Shown here: in pieces, positions 3,766 through 44,300 of the stretch
How the letters are laid out: each line of letters starts with the position of its first letter
How positions within the stretch are numbered: the first letter of the stretch is position 1
From: an uncultured Bacilli bacterium
GTDB lineage: Bacteria; Bacillota_I; Bacilli_A; RF39; UBA660
Direction: 5' to 3'
DNA length: 64,000 nucleotides
NCBI GenBank assembly: GCA_947631035.1
Contig: CANRJW010000001.1
Location: 5,254 to 69,253, forward strand
Notes under the pieces: generated by a model
The model's input: the letters and a program-made list of their open reading frames with translations, nothing else
The model's database searches: none
What the model was told of the DNA's origin: nothing
Position numbers and translations under genes: made by a program

Positions 3766-5799
3766 TTAAATGGCTAGGACGATACGGAAACTACAATTTC
3801 CCCTCGCAATCCCATCTTCACCGAAAAAAGCAAATAAACCTCTTCGAATAGTATTTTGAAACTGTCCACCACGACAAAGCCACGGATGCGTAGTGTAAAC
3901 AAATACTGCATAATCTTGATAAAAATAACTCCAATGCCATCCTCCGCCAACATTAGTTCCTATAGGTCCTATTTCTCCTATTGCATCTCCTAAAATTCGA
4001 CGATTCCAATGGGTTTGGTCAGCCCAATATTGGTAACTATCATAATATTTAGAATCTGCAAAATCTATTTTTCCTCCTGAGCCATAATCAACTTCTTTAT
4101 TCCCCTCTTGTAACATCACTCCCGCTACATATTCCCATGAACCACCGGACATGTCGAAGATGCCTGTATTATTTTCTGTGGTACTTGCTTTTTGACTTGT
4201 TGGGTATACGTAGGAAACATTATTACTTTCCTTTGGAGTTGTAGTTGCATATTCGTCCTTAGAAAAACCTGTATCAGCTCCATTTATTGCTACTACACCG
4301 GTTACATAATTTTGACTATTATTAACATTTACTTCGGTACATTTACCATTATTACATCTTCCATAAATAGAATTTGTAAGATAAGCAACGGCTCCCCACT
4401 CTGTATTCTTCATCATATGACTTTCTAATTCTCTTTTATACCCATAACTTGTTTGATAGGCATTCGATACGTTTATATTTCTCCATGAATAAACATTTGG
4501 TTTTATGATAACTTGTTCTGATTTATTTTCATTTTTTTGGGCATCTTCCACTTTTGTAGCTCCTTTATATCCTGTTTCAAACTTGCCGACCCACAATCCT
4601 TTAGCTCCTTCAAAGGCTAGAAATGCTGGATGCGTCATCCAATCTCCATAGCCACAACTTCCTCTTTCTCCTGATTCTGTTGGGGTAGTACATTCATTTG
4701 GATTTCCATCATCAGTATCTTCTATTCCAAATCGTATCTCAATTGATGTCGTTGGACCTTTATTGGAAAGTTCACTGCTGGCTGGTAATGCTTCAGTATA
4801 TTCCCCTAACTTATCGTCAAATAACTTATAACTATATTTTGGTATCCATACAAAATAACTTTCGATATCTTTCTCTTCTATTGTTGCCCCTACGTCTGGT
4901 TCTTCTGCTCCATCTGTTAGTATAACAGCATTCGCCCATCTCTTCTCTTCATAGTTATACCAATCATGGGATAAATCTGCTCTAGTAACTGTTCCATTAT
5001 CACTTATAATGACAGGTATGAGTTTATCGTTTGGAGTTGGTTCTACTTCTGCTAGTGTATTGGTTGATAGTAAAGCAATTTCTCCTTTACTATCTTGATT
5101 TCCTAATACTGGGTCTGCTCCATGTAATTTTGGTTCATTATAAACTGCTAAATCATTCATACTTCCATCTACTACTATTTTACTAATAAAAATTTTATTC
5201 ATTGCTTGGTCTTCTATTGTAACACTTTCGTCCATCCATAGTTTTATTGTATATGTTTTTGTATCACTCTCATTTAATGTTCCTTTTATTAATTCTCTTG
5301 CTTCTACTGATTTATAATCTTCTCCTTCATAGGTACTTTTTCCTTTTGGATAATTGAATAGTAACTCTTTTTGGCCTCCATTAAACTCTACGGCTATATA
5401 TTCACTATTTAATAAATTATCTTCTTGGCCGTTTTTTTCCATTAACTTCTCTAGTTTTACTGTATAATCCACTGTTGTTTTACATATATTTGTGATTTTA
5501 AATTGATAAGGTGTCAAATTCTTGGCATCTTTATCTTCTATAGGATAAGTCTTTTCTAAACGGATATCATTTTTTTCTTCTGTTAAACTTAATTTTAAGC
5601 AACCACTTTGTACTTCATTAATTCCAGTTTGAGTTGCCGTTGTTGTCCACCAGGCATAACTTGTTCCTACTAAAATTAATAATCCTGCTATAATTCCTAT
5701 AAATATTATTTTGATTCGTCGTTTGGGTTCCTTTCTATTATTATCTAATATACCCCCCCCCCAGACGACTATTTTCACTGGTTGGGAGGTTCTTTTCAA
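3766..5799 (-). CDS. Phase-variable surface-protein candidate: SipW-type leader plus TasA/camelysin-like N-domain, with a C-terminal FGE-sulfatase (SUMF1/DUF323)-like domain. Coordinates follow the TTG-initiated track ORF; the Shine-Dalgarno-linked ATG at 5809 is out of frame across the G10 tract
   Basis: GTSYAWWTTTA resembles the TasA GGTWAAFND SipW-cognate motif; LKLSL..PIEDKD..YQFKITNI pattern as in TasA; C-terminus NTEWGAVAYL / SGGSWEYVAG / LCRGGQFQNTIRRG resembles FGE-sulfatase motifs; paralogous to 11848..13596. Confidence 0.6.
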   Translation of the reverse strand: MKRTSQPVKIVVWGGGILDNNRKEPKRRIKIIFIGIIAGLLILVGTSYAWWTTTATQTGINEVQSGCLKLSLTEEKNDIRLEKTYPIEDKDAKNLTPYQFKITNICKTTVDYTVKLEKLMEKNGQEDNLLNSEYIAVEFNGGQKELLFNYPKGKSTYEGEDYKSVEARELIKGTLNESDTKTYTIKLWMDESVTIEDQAMNKIFISKIVVDGSMNDLAVYNEPKLHGADPVLGNQDSKGEIALLSTNTLAEVEPTPNDKLIPVIISDNGTVTRADLSHDWYNYEEKRWANAVILTDGAEEPDVGATIEEKDIESYFVWIPKYSYKLFDDKLGEYTEALPASSELSNKGPTTSIEIRFGIEDTDDGNPNECTTPTESGERGSCGYGDWMTHPAFLAFEGAKGLWVGKFETGYKGATKVEDAQKNENKSEQVIIKPNVYSWRNINVSNAYQTSYGYKRELESHMMKNTEWGAVAYLTNSIYGRCNNGKCTEVNVNNSQNYVTGVVAINGADTGFSKDEYATTTPKESNNVSYVYPTSQKASTTENNTGIFDMSGGSWEYVAGVMLQEGNKEVDYGSGGKIDFADSKYYDSYQYWADQTHWNRRILGDAIGEIGPIGTNVGGGWHWSYFYQDYAVFVYTTHPWLCRGGQFQNTIRRGLFAFFGEDGIARGNCSFRIVLAI
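5753..5762. repeat. Homopolymeric C10 (G10 on the coding strand) tract inside codons 13-16 (WGGG) of the TasA-like gene; candidate slipped-strand phase-variation switch
   Basis: Read directly; the only long G/C run in an ~30% GC window apart from its twin at 13550-13559. Confidence 0.9.
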
Positions 5800-5995
5800 A
5801 TTCTTTCATTTGTTTTTCTCCTCCATATCTTAATCTAATTCTACCACAAATTTTCCTCTTTGTTCAACCAAACTTTTTTACTTTTTCCTATCATTATGCT
5901 ATCTTATATCGTTATGCATGACATTGATATCACTATGCAAGCATAATTTTATCTTAAAATAGTATATTATTGAAATAACCAAGGAGAAAATTTTT

Positions 5996-11847: not shown

Positions 11848-13596
11848 TTAATTATTTCCTAAATAGGTAATTCTAGCATAACCATCGCCTTGTTTAGCAT
11901 TTTGACTAATAGCCTCGCTACTTACACTATCCGTAGTGTAAGTTTTTGTTTCGTCTGCATCACTTGTTGTACATTGGTAGCAATACATAGCTTTATTAGT
12001 TAGAAGAGGATTTCCAATGTAGCCAGAACCTCCTCCACCTCCAGCGTGTCCTCGTGAAGAGCCCCCTCCACCGAAGTATCCTCCACCTCCTCCGGCGCCA
12101 CCACAACCACCAATACTTGAATCTATTCCGCATCTATCCCCCTCAATATAGTAATAATTACCTCCTTGGCCAAATTTACCCTTTGCATTCTCACTTTTTT
12201 TATGAATTTCATATCCACCCTCGTTTTGGCTTCCTCCAATACCAGTATAATTAGTTGAAGAATTATTAGGATGAGTATTTACAATATTATTATATCCATC
12301 TTTTCCTTTGAATCCACCACCTGAGCCACCGTAAATATCATTACCATAACTATAAGTTCCACCATTACCTCCGCCACCTCCAGCAACAATTAAGACTTGT
12401 TCTTTTTGAGATTCTAATGTTGATAACAATCCTGAAACTTTAGCTATATGGGTAGCGCCTCCGCCACCAAAACCAATTTGGCTTACTGTATTTCCTGTTC
12501 CTCCACCATTATATCCACCAAAATATTCATTATTATTTCGTATATTTGAACCTTGCCCTCCAACATTAACAAATAATGTATCACTTGAAGAAATTGTATA
12601 TTCTCCTACTGAATAACCACCTAGACCACCTATATTTTTGGCTTCTTCACTTTCTGCACCACCCTGAGCTCCCCATACTTCTAATTTGTAATTTCCTTTT
12701 GGTAAACTGATGGCTTCTTCTTTTCCTGTATAATCAAAATCAATGGTTGTGTCTTTCTCTAGTGTGGTAAACTCTATGTTACAACTTACTTGATTTTTCT
12801 CGATTCCGGTTATCTCGACTCCCCATGTTTCTTGATTCCATTTTCCACTTCCTTTATCACATTTTACTTCGACTGCATAGTTTTCTTCTTCCTTGTTTGG
12901 CATTTCTTCTTGCATCTTTCCATCTACTAACATTGCTAATTGTATATCTCCATCTTGTGCTATTTCATTTTGGTCTCCTGTTATTACTACCTTGGCTTCA
13001 AACTTTCCGTTTTGACTATCATTATCCGCACTTTCGTCCATCCATAATCTTACTTCATGTTCTACGTTTGCATAGGCAGTTAGAGTTCCTTTATATATGT
13101 TATAGGCTTCTATCGCTTCATAGTCTTCTGTCTCTATCTTTGATGTACTATATTCTTCTGTTAATTTTTTTTTAACTTTTTTATCTATCTTGACCGCGAT
13201 ATTCTTTGATTCGATTCTTTTTCCATCTATTTGTAGTACCTCTATATTTACTTTATAATCTACTCCGGTATTACAGATGTTTCTTATTCTAAAATGAAAG
13301 GGTTCTAGTTTTTCTCCTTCTTTATCGGTTAAAGGATAAGCTTTTTTTAAACTTATAGCTTCACTTAATTCGTCCATTTCTATTTTCAAGCAACTTGTTC
13401 CTAAGATATTCATTTCGTTTTGTTTTGTTGTTGTGGTCCACCATGCATAACTAAAAGACACTACTGTTATGAGTGTTACAATACTTATTAAACTTACTAC
13501 TATTTTCTTGAGTCGTCTTGGTTCCTTTCTATTATTATCTAAATAATAACCCCCCCCCCAGACGACTATTTCCACTGGTTGGGAGGTTTCTTTCAA
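11848..13596 (-). CDS. Paralog of 3766..5799: SipW-type leader plus TasA/camelysin-like N-domain, fused to a C-terminal ALK-type glycine-rich domain (GAQGG family). TTG-initiated track ORF; the Shine-Dalgarno-linked ATG at 13606 is out of frame across the G10 tract
   Basis: N-terminus MKETSQPVEIVVWGGG..SYAWWTTTT and the LKIEMDE..PLTDKEGEKLEPFHFRIRNICNTG TasA-like pattern; C-terminus LEVWGAQGGAESEE..GGLGGY..VGGQGS..GGGGG blocks typical of bacterial/ALK glycine-rich domains. Confidence 0.6.
   Translation of the reverse strand: MKETSQPVEIVVWGGGYYLDNNRKEPRRLKKIVVSLISIVTLITVVSFSYAWWTTTTKQNEMNILGTSCLKIEMDELSEAISLKKAYPLTDKEGEKLEPFHFRIRNICNTGVDYKVNIEVLQIDGKRIESKNIAVKIDKKVKKKLTEEYSTSKIETEDYEAIEAYNIYKGTLTAYANVEHEVRLWMDESADNDSQNGKFEAKVVITGDQNEIAQDGDIQLAMLVDGKMQEEMPNKEEENYAVEVKCDKGSGKWNQETWGVEITGIEKNQVSCNIEFTTLEKDTTIDFDYTGKEEAISLPKGNYKLEVWGAQGGAESEEAKNIGGLGGYSVGEYTISSSDTLFVNVGGQGSNIRNNNEYFGGYNGGGTGNTVSQIGFGGGGATHIAKVSGLLSTLESQKEQVLIVAGGGGGNGGTYSYGNDIYGGSGGGFKGKDGYNNIVNTHPNNSSTNYTGIGGSQNEGGYEIHKKSENAKGKFGQGGNYYYIEGDRCGIDSSIGGCGGAGGGGGYFGGGGSSRGHAGGGGGSGYIGNPLLTNKAMYCYQCTTSDADETKTYTTDSVSSEAISQNAKQGDGYARITYLGNN
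13550..13559. repeat. Homopolymeric C10 (G10 coding) tract in codons 13-16 of the second TasA-like paralog
   Basis: Read directly; same position and length as the tract at 5753-5762. Confidence 0.9.
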
Positions 13597-13693
13597 ATTC
13601 TTTCATTTGTCTTTTCCTCCTCTATTATTACTTTTTATTCTACTCTCTTTTTCGTCTTTTGACAAGACATGAAAAAAAGGCCTATACAAAAGC

Positions 13694-15874
13694 CTATTTT
13701 CTACTCTTAACTTTTTTCTCTTTTTCTACTTTCTTTTCTTCTTTACCTTTTGGTTTTGGTAAAGCTTCTTTACGAGATAAATTTAAACGTCCTCTATTGT
13801 CATAGCCTAAACTCTTTACAACAATTTGGTCTCCAACTTTAAATAAATCACTTGGTTTTTCAATTCTTTCATGAGCAAGTTGTGAAACATGTACCAATCC
13901 TTCACAGCCACTCCATAGTTCAACAAAGCAACCAAAGTCTTCTACTTTTGTAACCGTTCCAGTATAGATTTCCCCTTCTTCAACAACACGTACAACGTTT
14001 AAAATCATTTCTTTGGTTTTTTTAATAATTTCTGGGTCCGTATGATAAATAATAACTCTTCCATCATCTTCTAAATCCACTTTAACAGCATCTTTATCAT
14101 TTACCGTTGAAACATTGCTTGATTCTAAAATAATCTTGGTAATCATTTCTCCACCACGACCAATAACATCTTTAATCTTTTCTGGGTCAATAGTGAATGT
14201 TTCAATTTTAGGTGCATATGGAGATAATTCTTTACGTGGTTCTTTAATACAATCGGTCATAACATCTAAGATTTCAAGTCGAGCTTTTTTAGCTTGGGCA
14301 AGGGCTTCTTTTAAGATGTCTTTTGTAACGCCTTTAATTTTAATATCCATTTGTAAAGCACAGATACCATCTTTTGTTCCGGCAACTTTAAAGTCCATAT
14401 CTCCCATGTGGTCTTCTAAACCAGCGATATCGGTTAAAATAGTATATTTTTTACCATTGGTAATAAGTCCCATTGCAATACCTGCTACTGGCTTTTTAAT
14501 TGGAACTCCTGCGGCCATTAAAGATAAACACCCAGCACAAATGGTTGCTTGACTACTTGATCCGTTACTTTCTAATATTTCACTTACAACACGAATGGTA
14601 TAAGGGAATTCTTCTTCGCTAGGTATTACTTGAGCAAGGGCTCTTTCTCCTAAAGCACCATGGCCGATTTCGCGTCGACCTGGGGAACCATACCTTCCCG
14701 TTTCTCCAACAGAAAATTGTGGGAAATTATAATGAAGCATAAAACGTTTTGAATCTTCTAATCCAAGGCCATCAAGTATTTGATGTTCTCCTAAAGCTCC
14801 TAGAGTTGTTGTTGCTAGGCTTTGCGTTTCTCCACGTGTAAATAAAGCACTTCCATGTGGTCGAGGTAAAATATCAACTTGGGCATCTAAATGTCTTATT
14901 TCGTCCATTTTTCTACCATCTGGTCTAATTTTCTTATCAGTAATTAAACGTCTTACTTCGTCCCCTTCAATGGTATCAACAACTTTTTTAACATCTTTTA
15001 AAATTTGTTCGATGTTTTCGTCATTTGCATAGATTTCCGCAAAATTTTCTAAAGTCGCCGTTTTTACTTCTTCAATACGTTCATAACTTGCTAGTTTATC
15101 TTTAATTTGAATAGCAGCAAGCATATCTTTGGTTGCATAATCTCTTACAGCACGTTCTAATTCTTCATCGATGGATGCAACAGCAAGTTCTTGTTTTTCT
15201 AATCCAATTTCGTCAATAATTTTTTGTTCAAATTCACATAACGTTTTAATATGTTCATGACCAAACATTAAAGCTTCTAACATATCTTTTTCGCTTAATT
15301 CTTGAGCACCAGCTTCCACCATACAAATAGCGTCTTTTGTACCAGCTACTGTTAAATTTAAACTACTTTGTTCTAATTGTTCAACGGTTGGGTTAATAAT
15401 AAATTCTTTACCAATTTTACCAACGACAACTCCAGCCACCGGTCCATCAAAGGGTATATCGCTAATTCCTAAACATAAGCTTGAACCAAATAAAGCAGCC
15501 ATAATAGGAGAATTGTCTTGATCAACGGATAAAACCGTATTGATTACTTGAATTTCATTTCTTAAGTTCTCATCAAACATGGGTCGTATTGGACGATCGA
15601 TAATTCTTGCGGCAAGGGTTGCTTCATCAGTAGGTCGCCCTTCTCTTTTAATAAAACCTCCTGGTATTTTACCAATCGAATATAATTTTTCTTGGTATAA
15701 AACGGTTAGTGGAAAAAAGTCTGCGGTAATCGTATTTTTTCCCATAACACAAACAGATAAAATGACTGTATCTCCATAACGAACTAAAACGGATCCATTC
15801 GTTTGCTTTGCTAGTTCTCCTGTTTCTACAACTAAATCTCTTCCTAAAAAATCTAATTTATATACTTTCTTCAT
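13694..15874 (-). CDS. pnp: Polynucleotide phosphorylase (PNPase)
   Basis: 726 aa; two RNase PH domains, KH and C-terminal S1 domain ([20 protein letters not shown]); lysine-rich tail. Confidence 0.95.
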
Positions 15875-16486: not shown

Positions 16487-17320
16487 ATGTTTACTCAAGA
16501 AGAACCAAAAACAATCAACTTGAAAAATGATTGGATGTTCAAAGCTTTCATGACTAAACCACAAAGTAGAAGTATGGTTGCAGGTTTGATTAGTGAAATC
16601 ACAGGTATCGATAGAAATCTTTTGTATCATGCCACATATATAGGTGGTGAAGAAATTGCCAAAAGGCAAGAAATACAAAAGAAGCAATCCACCGATATGA
16701 CCATTAAGATTACTGACCACATGCAAATTATTGTGGAAATGAATCAAGCATATCAAAAACATGTTTTTGAGAAAAACAGTTTGTATGCTATGAGTCGTAT
16801 TGTGGAAACTACCACATCCAAAAAAGAGTATACTTCTATTATACTGATTAATTTTGATAATTTTAATCAGTATGAAACAAGTGACCCTATCTTGATTTTT
16901 CAAATACAAGATAAAAAGGGACACATAGAAGTAAACAATTATATTTCTTATCATGTAATACTTGAAAATTGTTCTGATAAAAACTATAATGTAGGTAAAG
17001 AAATAAAGAAGTTTGCTAATTTCATAAAAGAAAAAAGAACAATCAAGCAATTAGAGGAAAAGTATGAGGGGGATGAGGAATATATGTCAGTAATAAGAAC
17101 AGTAGAAGAGTTAAGTAAAGACCCGGAGTTTGCGGGGTATTATGATATTGAAGAGAAGCATCGTCAACAACTAGAAGATGCCAAAGAAACGGGAATGGAC
17201 GAAGCAAACCTTTCTACTGCTAAAAAGTTACTGCAAATGGGTGTTAATACAATCGAACAAATAGCGGAAGCAACCGGTTTATCCCTTGAACAAGTTGAGA
17301 AGTTAAAGGAAGAAAACTAA
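16487..17320 (+). CDS. Rpn-family / PD-(D/E)XK nuclease-family transposase-like protein (TIGR01784-like)
   Basis: N-terminus NDWMFKAFM (family NDxxFKxxF motif); C-terminal LSTAKKLLQMGVNTIEQIAEATGLSLEQVEKLK helix typical of this family; AAGGAGG RBS. Confidence 0.65.
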   Translation: MFTQEEPKTINLKNDWMFKAFMTKPQSRSMVAGLISEITGIDRNLLYHATYIGGEEIAKRQEIQKKQSTDMTIKITDHMQIIVEMNQAYQKHVFEKNSLYAMSRIVETTTSKKEYTSIILINFDNFNQYETSDPILIFQIQDKKGHIEVNNYISYHVILENCSDKNYNVGKEIKKFANFIKEKRTIKQLEEKYEGDEEYMSVIRTVEELSKDPEFAGYYDIEEKHRQQLEDAKETGMDEANLSTAKKLLQMGVNTIEQIAEATGLSLEQVEKLKEEN

Positions 17321-44039: not shown

Positions 44040-44300
44040 AAGAAAAAACACAGCATTTCTTAAGGACGAAAATGCCGTGGTACCACCTTAATTCCTAGTA
44101 AAACTAGCTTTCTTCATCTTCTATAGGAGATGACCCATTAAACTCCAAAAGCAAGTTCGTAAATTTTATTTGTTTACTTACACCCACCGTAAACTCTCTT
44201 TAAAATAAAGGTTTTACTACTACTCTTTTTTCAACGCTTTTAAGTATTATATTAAATTTTTCTTTTTTTTTCAATAGATTTCTTTTCATAACGAAAAAAA
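44040..44300 (-). promoter_or_regulatory. T-box riboswitch leader (tRNA-Leu expected) with terminator/antiterminator, upstream of the small membrane ORF-leuS unit
   Basis: Minus-strand AATTAAGGTGGTACCACGGCATTTTCGTCCTTAAGAAATGCTGTGTTTTTTCTTTTTT contains the T-box consensus (AANNNGGGTGGNACCGCGG-like), then GCATTT..AAATGC terminator helix and a U-run. Confidence 0.6.

Follow-up and report, generated by a model that had tools for sequence, protein, structure and literature searches.

A poly-G tract in a shared 5′ cassette is a probable phase-variation switch of two paralogous secreted-protein genes in an uncultured Bacilli bacterium

Organization of the two paralogs and their 5′ cassettes

A 64,000-nt stretch of contig CANRJW010000001.1 (assembly GCA_947631035.1, positions 5,254 to 69,253; hereafter the window) from an uncultured Bacilli bacterium of the RF39 lineage carries two paralogous genes, A and B, on its minus strand. 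In each, a run of ten guanines (G10) lies between the start codon and the body of the open reading frame (ORF), within a short 5′ cassette common to both genes. Here we describe this element and its variation between samples and relatives, and we propose that it probably acts as a phase-variation switch. The features of paralog B, in window coordinates, are as follows.

13678 to 13695, minus strand: intrinsic-terminator-like hairpin and T-run closing pnp, the PNPase gene (terminator scan)
13637 to 13665, minus strand: promoter-like site TTGTCA, 17 nt, TAGAAT, with 10/12 matches (consensus scan only)
13615 to 13620, minus strand: Shine-Dalgarno (SD) sequence GGAGGA, 8 nt 5′ of ATG 13606
13535 to 13606, minus strand: short reading frame of the OFF state (G10), 23 codons, MKEFERNLPTSGNSRLGGGLLFR, ending in TAA 13537-13535
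13581 to 13586, minus strand: CCTCCC element in the leader (Leu-Pro codons CTC CCA), able to pair with six G's of the tract
13550 to 13559, minus strand: G10 homopolymer (C10 on the plus strand), the putative slippage-prone switch; G9 and G12 in frame, G10 and G11 out
11848 to 13596, minus strand: paralog B body, a 582-codon ORF listed from TTG 13596 (ORF list)

Those of paralog A are the following.

5838 to 5867, minus strand: promoter-like site TTGAAC, 18 nt, TG-TAGAAT (consensus scan only)
5741 to 5824, minus strand: cassette with SD GGAGGAG (5824-5818), ATG 5809, CCTCCC (5789-5784), G10 and OFF-frame TAA (5743-5741)
5753 to 5762, minus strand: G10 tract, with the frame relationship of paralog B
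3766 to 5799, minus strand: paralog A body, a 677-codon ORF

Read directly on the minus strand, paralog B begins with GGAGGA (13620-13615), an 8-nt spacer and ATG (13606-13604), followed by the codons AAA GAA TTT GAA AGA AAC CTC CCA ACC AGT GGA AAT AGT CGT CTG. These run into GGG GGG GGG TTA TTA TTT AGA TAA, the tract being G10. Fifteen codons and CTG lie between ATG 13606 and G10, which places the tract 16 codons downstream. The 582-codon ORF is in the +1 frame relative to ATG 13606, with TTG 13596 located 10 nt downstream of that ATG. Genes rebuilt in silico with G8, G9, G10, G11 and G12 gave ATG-initiated products of 21, 585, 23, 22 and 586 amino acids (aa), respectively; G9 and G12 are therefore ON, and G8, G10 and G11 are OFF. 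ATG 13606 is the sole paralog B start codon with an SD sequence. Sequence inspection found none before the alternative starts chosen by gene callers, TTG 13596 and GTG 13575, and the next canonical in-frame start 3′ of the tract, a GTG, falls within the membrane helix. The true paralog B coding sequence in the ON state is the one from ATG 13606, not that from TTG 13596. Upstream lies pnp (15874-13694, minus strand; identified by its Pfam families). Paralog B appears to be a separate transcription unit, because the terminator-like hairpin ends pnp; the promoter-like site of paralog B is directly 3′ of this terminator.

An earlier, sequence-only reading of this DNA had reported the paralog B cassette, and its quoted sequence is exact on the minus strand, including the ATG placed 10 nt before the TTG of the 582-codon ORF and the stop after the tract. 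Its assignment of G9 and G12 as in-frame lengths agrees with the rebuilt products of 585 and 586 aa. The site that it delimited (13540-13625) is correct, except that TAA 13537-13535 lies 3 nt beyond the lower coordinate. The same switch layout, claimed for paralog A, was also recovered there (ATG 5809, G10 5762-5753), and the rebuilt G9 form of paralog A encodes 680 aa. The two leaders were said to be near-identical, which holds, with differences at 3/57 positions between the ATG and the tract end; the indel implied by the notation gaaa[a]gaaacc is instead a 2-nt substitution, AGA versus AAG. Nucleotide identity between the paralogs reaches 80-90% in the interval −15 to +105, numbered from the ATG, and is 40-60% outside it. 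Paralogs A and B hold the only two copies of the cassette in the 64-kb window.

The tracts stand out from the composition of the window, whose GC content is 30.6%. Its C/G homopolymers comprise 12 runs of 5, one of 6, none of 7-9 and two of 10, whereas 0.0015 G/C runs of at least 10 would be expected if bases were independent and identically distributed. Similarly, dinucleotide shuffles yield an expectation of 0.17 windows of at least eight G's, and the real sequence has six, all confined to tracts A and B. Chance cannot explain a pair of G10 runs placed homologously in the two genes. Both tracts are longer than the G/C run of about 7 or more that defines a hypermutable simple-sequence repeat (SSR). 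In addition, the rarest codons of the genome are found in the leader: CTC and CTG make up 3.4% and 1.1% of Leu codons, and GGG 7% of Gly codons.

Tract-length variation between samples

Contigs were retrieved by exact match to the PNPase, sigma factor, VanY, M23 peptidase and S15 proteins of the window. The rpsO-pnp-B region is covered by three contigs from ENA assemblies, L001, L002 and L003, which represent samples ERZ27249106, ERZ27249588 and ERZ27249325, respectively. L001 has G10 at B and is 100% identical to the window over its full 3568 nt. L002 (3567 nt) matches the window over its full length except for one G fewer, giving an in-frame G9, and the gene caller starts its paralog B gene at the ATG. 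The first 2906 nt of L003 equal the window except for one extra G (G11), and the contig diverges downstream of window position ~13512. Flanking the B tract, these contigs show 0 mismatches to the window over 2.9-3.5 kb, and the tract is the sole difference in the matched spans. The rpsO look-up returned no further contigs reaching the B tract. The sequence-only reading had named invariant tract length as an observation that would count against a switch; lengths of 9, 10 and 11 were found in the contigs instead.

At paralog A, both L004 and L005, assembled from samples that also gave B contigs, have G10. Sample ERZ27249588 consequently combines an in-frame B (G9) with an out-of-frame A (G10), and this B-on/A-off pattern is as would be expected for independent contingency switches. 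Together with G10, G9 and G11 at B in the three samples, it is consistent with the independent ON/OFF control of each paralog that had been suggested earlier. Separately from the tract, the ERZ27249588 strain (L004/L010, P0001) lacks 18 nt (LFAFFG) of a conserved C-terminal motif of paralog A, at window ~3800-3830; it is otherwise identical.

The cassette in related bacteria

The module consisting of SD, ATG, leader, CCTCCCAAC, CTG and Gn was recovered at six further loci of related bacteria, in line with the proposal of a conserved switch cassette with more copies elsewhere.

L013: G9, in frame
L014: G10, in frame; one base fewer 3′ of the tract than in its relative L015
L015 (NCBI metagenome-assembled genome (MAG) GCA_949032945.1): G10, out of frame
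L016: G10, out of frame; A-like body at a different locus
L017: G10, out of frame; B-like body with glycine-rich domain at a different locus; the rpsO-pnp region of this sample is 96% identical to the window
L021 (GCA_948716395.1): decayed tract CTGGGAGAAGGG, encoding Leu-Gly-Glu-Gly, in frame (L021:1480-1540)

All six have CCTCCCAAC upstream and CTG immediately before the tract. Five loci, namely window A, window B, L015, L016 and L017, are all exactly G10 with the same out-of-frame relation, and out-of-frame G10 is present in independent assemblies (ENA, Logan-derived and two NCBI MAGs). The tract of L021 is interrupted (GGGAGAAGGG) and in frame; this contig retains CCTCCCAAC, in which CTCCC is the perfect complement of GGGAG, and may represent a "locked ON" allele.

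Wider pattern searches gave no additional copies. Scans of genome contigs with the exact cassette DNA pattern and with a protein pattern from the N-domain alignment each returned 0 matches, as did the strict DNA pattern against JGI metagenome contigs. A loose pattern run on the JGI contigs (CCTCCCAAC-N8-24-CTG8+) gave 46 matches, all of them unrelated and mostly chance occurrences in GC-rich DNA.

Protein products and selection

Residues 1-33 of the paralog B product make up a charged n-region, to which the tract-encoded Gly3 belongs; next comes a predicted hydrophobic helix ending in SFSYAWWTTT. The following domain of ~170 aa is a beta-sandwich in the AlphaFold model (mean predicted local distance difference test score 75.7), and it is followed by a linker and an ALK_LTK_GRD glycine-rich domain. 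Residues 299-582 match PF12810, the ALK/LTK-type glycine-rich domain, with E = 8.5e-38 and 131 bits against a cut-off of 24.5. A Pfam scan found no PF12810 domain in paralog A, and searches of Pfam, NCBIfam and PDB sequences gave no match to its C-terminal 460 aa. The two proteins share their N-terminal part, with 35% identity over a 344-aa BLASTP alignment (E = 9e-40) and 45% over the aligned ~220-aa N-terminal region. A PDB sequence search with both paralog proteins returned no matches.

Searching 1.84 billion cluster representatives (50% identity) with HMMER yielded 3435 relatives of the N-terminal domain. Most of them start with M-K-K-K, a hydrophobic helix and G-x-S-Y-A-Y-W, and have no leader. 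The leader-bearing minority appears either in the ON form "M..NLPTS(G/E)..LGGG.." (P0005, P0006, P0008 and P0151) or as off-frame calls "..WGGG.." (P0001, which is paralog A, P0007 and P0154). The family members that we inspected carry many different C-terminal regions behind the N-domain. In other protein searches, a homolog look-up with the paralog B N-terminus gave no matches, and an alignment query gave short proteins only. Both paralogs are probably exported, surface-associated proteins with exchangeable functional heads, and the tract would lie within the n-region of the export signal, a place tolerant of Gly3 or Gly4. The more distant members P0078, P0150, P0092, P0093, P0009 and P0041 start with MGGGL.., MPLGGG.., MEKNTCGGGL.. 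or MVEGG.., and these N-terminal Gly runs may point to additional poly-G tracts that lie at the start codon or ahead of it.

The ratio of nonsynonymous to synonymous substitution rates (dN/dS) was 0.27 between paralog B and its L017 homolog (dS 0.58, 548 codons) and 0.35 between paralog A and its L016 homolog (dS 0.65, 459 codons). All four alleles in this comparison are out of frame in their own assemblies. In an AT-rich genome, the 582- and 677-codon ORFs have no further disruption, and the sole frame change is at the tract. The gene bodies are thus not pseudogenes, given purifying selection (dN/dS 0.27-0.35) and otherwise intact ORFs; pseudogene decay was considered and rejected on these grounds.

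Mosaicism and possible recombination between paralogs

The cassette had also been proposed as a substrate for inter-paralog recombination. L017 joins a B-type body, 90-100% identical to B from +45 on, to an A-type 5′ untranslated region (UTR), of which ~30 nt are identical to A; between −45 and −15 its identity is 83% to A versus 37% to B. In L003 (sample ERZ27249325), pnp and the B leader (G11) are followed, from window ~13512 on, by the body of a third, A-like gene (L003:2907-2996). Over 201 nt this body is 90.5% identical to A, and by eye it is similar, though not identical, to L016. The L003 junction reflects either true recombination between leader and body or a chimera assembled at the common cassette. 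The mosaic contigs fit paralog recombination at the cassette and are suggestive of it, although low-coverage contigs could be assembly chimeras. The L017 mosaic and the L003 join accordingly lend the proposal partial support, with the proviso that the latter may be chimeric.

Contig ends are also informative. The Logan contig L006 ends at window 5815, exactly where A-type and L017-type 5′UTRs part (L017:3840-3900), and this stop suggests that the same genome may hold a further cassette-bearing paralog with an A-type 5′UTR outside the window. Where the N-domain gives way to the variable C-terminal region, in both paralogs, independent contigs end or diverge (window 12849-12902 and 5011-5079). 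At the B boundary, L001 and L002 end at 12849 and L007 begins at 12902; at the A boundary, the last 50 nt of L005 contain 8 mismatches. This boundary is a possible second hotspot of recombination or variation.

The CCUCCC element and a predicted hairpin

CCTCCC occurs only twice in the 64-kb window, each time 21 nt upstream of a tract. With its rare Leu codon CTC (3.4%), the element is invariant in 8/8 cassettes, and the retention of CTC in all of them suggests constraint at the nucleotide level. In the minimum-free-energy fold of every cassette, (A)ACCUCCC is paired with six or seven G's of the tract, and a short inner stem ends at the first G's. Folding of the 111-nt cassette RNAs gave −25.7 kcal/mol (z = −3.8) for B and −25.3 kcal/mol (z = −3.7) for A relative to dinucleotide shuffles. 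Hairpins of distant-cassette RNAs have z = −1.8 and −0.9, and as DNA the values range from z = −0.3 to −2.6. The outer stem is invariant across cassettes and hence uninformative for covariation, and the inner stem has no unambiguous alignment. An Rfam search at the cassette gave no match. A role of the CCUCCC:G-run hairpin as an intrinsic terminator or attenuator was rejected: the scan called no terminator, and a U-rich tail is present in B-type cassettes only.

Candidate roles for CCUCCC include modulating slippage during replication, promoting RNA-polymerase slippage as in Roseiflexus IS630, and masking the SD-like G run; the element may also be merely part of a conserved Leu-Pro-Thr peptide. 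A more elaborate scenario, which we offer as doubtful speculation, combines these parts. In it, a portable module (promoter −10, SD, ATG, CCUCCC, hairpin, G10 and stops in both OFF frames) would be passed by recombination from one paralogous surface-protein gene to another. Through pairing with the G run, its anti-SD-like CCUCCC would tune slippage, either in DNA replication or by RNA polymerase. G10 would then leak some G9 mRNA, amounting to two-layer (genetic and transcriptional) bet-hedging in a Gram-positive-type commensal.

Weighing of the explanations

We put at roughly 75% the probability that G10 is a hypermutable SSR of the contingency type, through which translation of a secreted or surface-anchored protein is switched by phase variation. 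Phase variation is favoured because the anatomy of the locus, the polymorphism, the in-frame and out-of-frame alleles of relatives, the locked variant and the selection data all fit it. Four defining features of SSR phase variation were found here: a long G/C repeat, its location between the start codon and the ORF body, ON and OFF lengths in near-identical DNA, and purifying selection. In the mechanism that we propose, translation would start at ATG 13606, and the tract would lie in the code for the cytoplasmic n-region, ahead of the membrane helix or signal sequence. G10 or G11 would lead to a stop after 22-23 codons and G9 or G12 to the 585/586-aa protein. Slipped-strand mispairing at replication would change the tract length, probably reversibly and frequently, such that each lineage would stochastically display or hide each paralog, with switching selected, for example, by antibody, phage or niche. 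The 120-nt island of high identity at the cassette may both be maintained by inter-paralog recombination and promote it.

Several observations weigh against this interpretation. Length variation at B is represented by three consensus calls at ~4x k-mer coverage (L001-L003), and G9 and G11 could in principle be homopolymer consensus errors. Paralog A, moreover, is invariantly G10 in the contigs, two of them read directly and three deduced from gene calls that are the same. Consensus errors would, however, be unlikely to affect two of the three B contigs and 0/5 at A. Finally, the sameness of G10 at five loci fits an OFF-biased population but could also mean that the frameshift is conserved and overcome in the RNA.

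Such RNA-level recoding, which we consider unlikely, would make G10 the normal genotype. RNA polymerase would slip on the C10 template and drop one G, possibly aided by the nascent hairpin, which ends at the G run and then invades it, in the manner of Roseiflexus IS630 slippage, or ribosomes would shift +1 on GGG, and DNA variation would be secondary. The five exactly G10 loci (A, B, L015, L016 and L017), which all need the same minus-one-nucleotide correction, speak for it, as does the hairpin predicted in every cassette, with CCUCCC on the G run and an inner stem abutting the tract. The rare-codon CCTCCC, invariant in 8/8 cassettes and elsewhere absent from the window, is likewise in its favour; a 10-nt run has the length of the RNA:DNA hybrid, and hairpin-stimulated forward realignment is documented (PMC5009743). 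Nevertheless, a recoding system needs no in-frame DNA alleles, and these exist in L002 (G9), L013 (G9), L014 and L021. The tract differs among otherwise identical strains, and the out-of-frame DNA is thus not fixed. The stability of the hairpin is not clearly above that of dinucleotide shuffles (z −0.3 to −3.8), and its invariant outer stem provides no covariation evidence. As for +1 ribosomal frameshifting of the prfB type, the run is followed by UUA, which at 59% is the most used Leu codon, with the stop another 4-5 codons on; the hungry or stop codon expected in the A site is therefore lacking. Documented bacterial slippage sites are, in addition, mostly A/T runs (PMC5009743). Phase variation and RNA-level recoding are not mutually exclusive.

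It could also be argued that the tracts are homopolymer sequencing or assembly errors in in-frame genes, or that the genes are pseudogenes inactivated at a mutable site. Homopolymers of 10 nt are error-prone, the window and most related contigs come from low-coverage metagenome assemblies, and both paralogs are out of frame in the window. Against an artefact, the same out-of-frame G10 state recurs in independent assemblies at five different loci, and both shorter and longer tracts are seen, so that no systematic bias is apparent. Decay is contradicted by purifying selection and by 582 and 677 undisrupted codons in a genome of 31% GC, and two G10 runs at homologous positions are beyond chance. 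We regard this explanation as already largely refuted and very improbable. The least probable of the accounts is regulation by a leader peptide, with the 23-codon frame as a regulatory upstream ORF and the main protein made from the other-frame TTG or GTG or by re-initiation after the TAA. Gene callers do start at GTG 13575 or TTG 13596, yielding "M..VVWGGG" proteins, and the leader peptide is conserved between the paralogs. Yet neither of these starts has an SD sequence, and the first canonical in-frame start after the TAA is inside the membrane helix and would abolish export. Leader and body are, moreover, naturally fused in frame in L002, L013, L014 and L021, and the leader is conserved most strongly as nucleotide sequence near the tract.

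Comparison with known systems

Homopolymer contingency loci are textbook knowledge in Neisseria, Haemophilus, Helicobacter and Campylobacter. To our knowledge, there are few descriptions of them from uncultured, low-GC bacteria of the Firmicutes type that only metagenomes have revealed. Gardnerella NanH3 and other cell-wall proteins reportedly carry 5′ homopolymer tracts subject to slipped-strand mispairing, which would provide a parallel in an extracellular protein of a Gram-positive-type commensal; that host is actinobacterial and high-GC, however, and the proteins are unrelated.

By analogy, the mechanism proposed here is that of a contingency locus of the pilC, opa or Campylobacter type. 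In Neisseria, pilC has a poly-G tract in its 5′ coding region, with 9-15 G in different strains, and pilC1 and pilC2 each carry a tract (Jonsson et al. 1991, via PMC5320596). The cassettes described here resemble pilC in having a 5′-coding G tract in a surface-structure gene, an on/off switch of frame (probable in our case), two paralogs each with a tract, and length differences between strains. They differ in that pilC belongs to a Gram-negative pathogen of 50% GC or more and encodes an unrelated protein, whereas at ~31% GC the G10 is far more anomalous and has a conserved upstream CCTCCC. The opa genes of Neisseria comprise 11-12 paralogues with a CTTCT coding repeat (PMC5320596). They share with our system paralogous surface-protein genes, a common repeat-bearing 5′ coding module and independent switching (probable in our case), and opa paralogs recombine; the repeat there is a pentamer rather than a homopolymer, and recombination in our case is suggested by mosaic sequences only. 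In low-GC Campylobacter jejuni, G/C runs of ~8-11, with modal lengths of 9-10, occur essentially in phase-variable surface-related genes, and selection by phage or host has been proposed (PMC8355987). Rare poly-G/C runs at contingency genes (putative ones here) of a low-GC genome are common to both, but phylum and gene families differ, and the Campylobacter tracts are scattered in unrelated genes whereas those described here sit on a common 5′ cassette.

Two further comparisons concern the predicted hairpin and the interrupted tract. In the Roseiflexus IS630 transposase gene, a stem-loop stimulates transcriptional slippage at U5C5 with invariant DNA (PMC5009743). A homopolymeric motif behind a nascent-RNA hairpin (predicted here) and the need to lose one RNA nucleotide are shared features; in contrast, the DNA varies at our locus, and the tract itself forms part of the 3′ arm of the hairpin. 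Interrupted, "locked" tracts are known in phase-variable genes, as in pgtA, with (G)11-19 versus GGGAGCGGG (PMC5320596), and the interrupted tract of L021 beside the long, variable tracts of its relatives is of this kind.

The common, putatively recombining cassette and the CCUCCC partner could be the sole parts that go beyond the ordinary; the finding is useful and solid, and would not surprise a specialist in phase variation. It implies that, in a large unannotated family of secreted beta-sandwich proteins, members in one lineage acquired a common poly-G switch cassette. Carrying the cassette would imply that these proteins are exposed to selection that fluctuates, whether by antibody, phage or niche, and hence that they are likely surface antigens, adhesins or receptors. 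In public protein sets, such genes are systematically mis-started at GTG or TTG codons that lack an SD ("MKIVVWGGG..." and "MSTWGGG..."; P0001, P0007, P0154, L001 and L004) or truncated (P0002 and P0003). The conserved CCUCCC partner of the tract may also offer a handle on how sequence context sets slippage rates.

Chromosomal context and minor observations

The chromosomal surroundings of the paralogs include genes for phosphoketolase, M23 peptidase, a sigma factor/STAS pair, LytR-CpsA-Psr, PBP5 and VanY, as well as pnp and rpsO. A tblastn search of phage and plasmid collections with the N-domain gave 0 matches; there is no sign of a mobile-element origin, since relatives are absent from these collections. 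A T-box leader (RF00230, window 44059-44243, minus strand) scored 103.8 bits, above the gathering score. Together with the sigma/STAS pair and LytR-CpsA-Psr, it supports a low-GC bacterium with Firmicutes-type features as the host.

In two distant relatives, the 3′ end of the family gene shares its sequence with a small overlapping gene of the HTH_3 (XRE) type (L015:1852-2046 and L021:2846-3046); no HTH_3 gene follows paralog A or B in the window. A PDDEXK_2 gene (Rpn/transposase-like nuclease) lies beside rpsO, upstream of pnp and paralog B (window 16487-17320, plus strand; L018:106-987), and the strain with 96% identity to the window in that region has it too.

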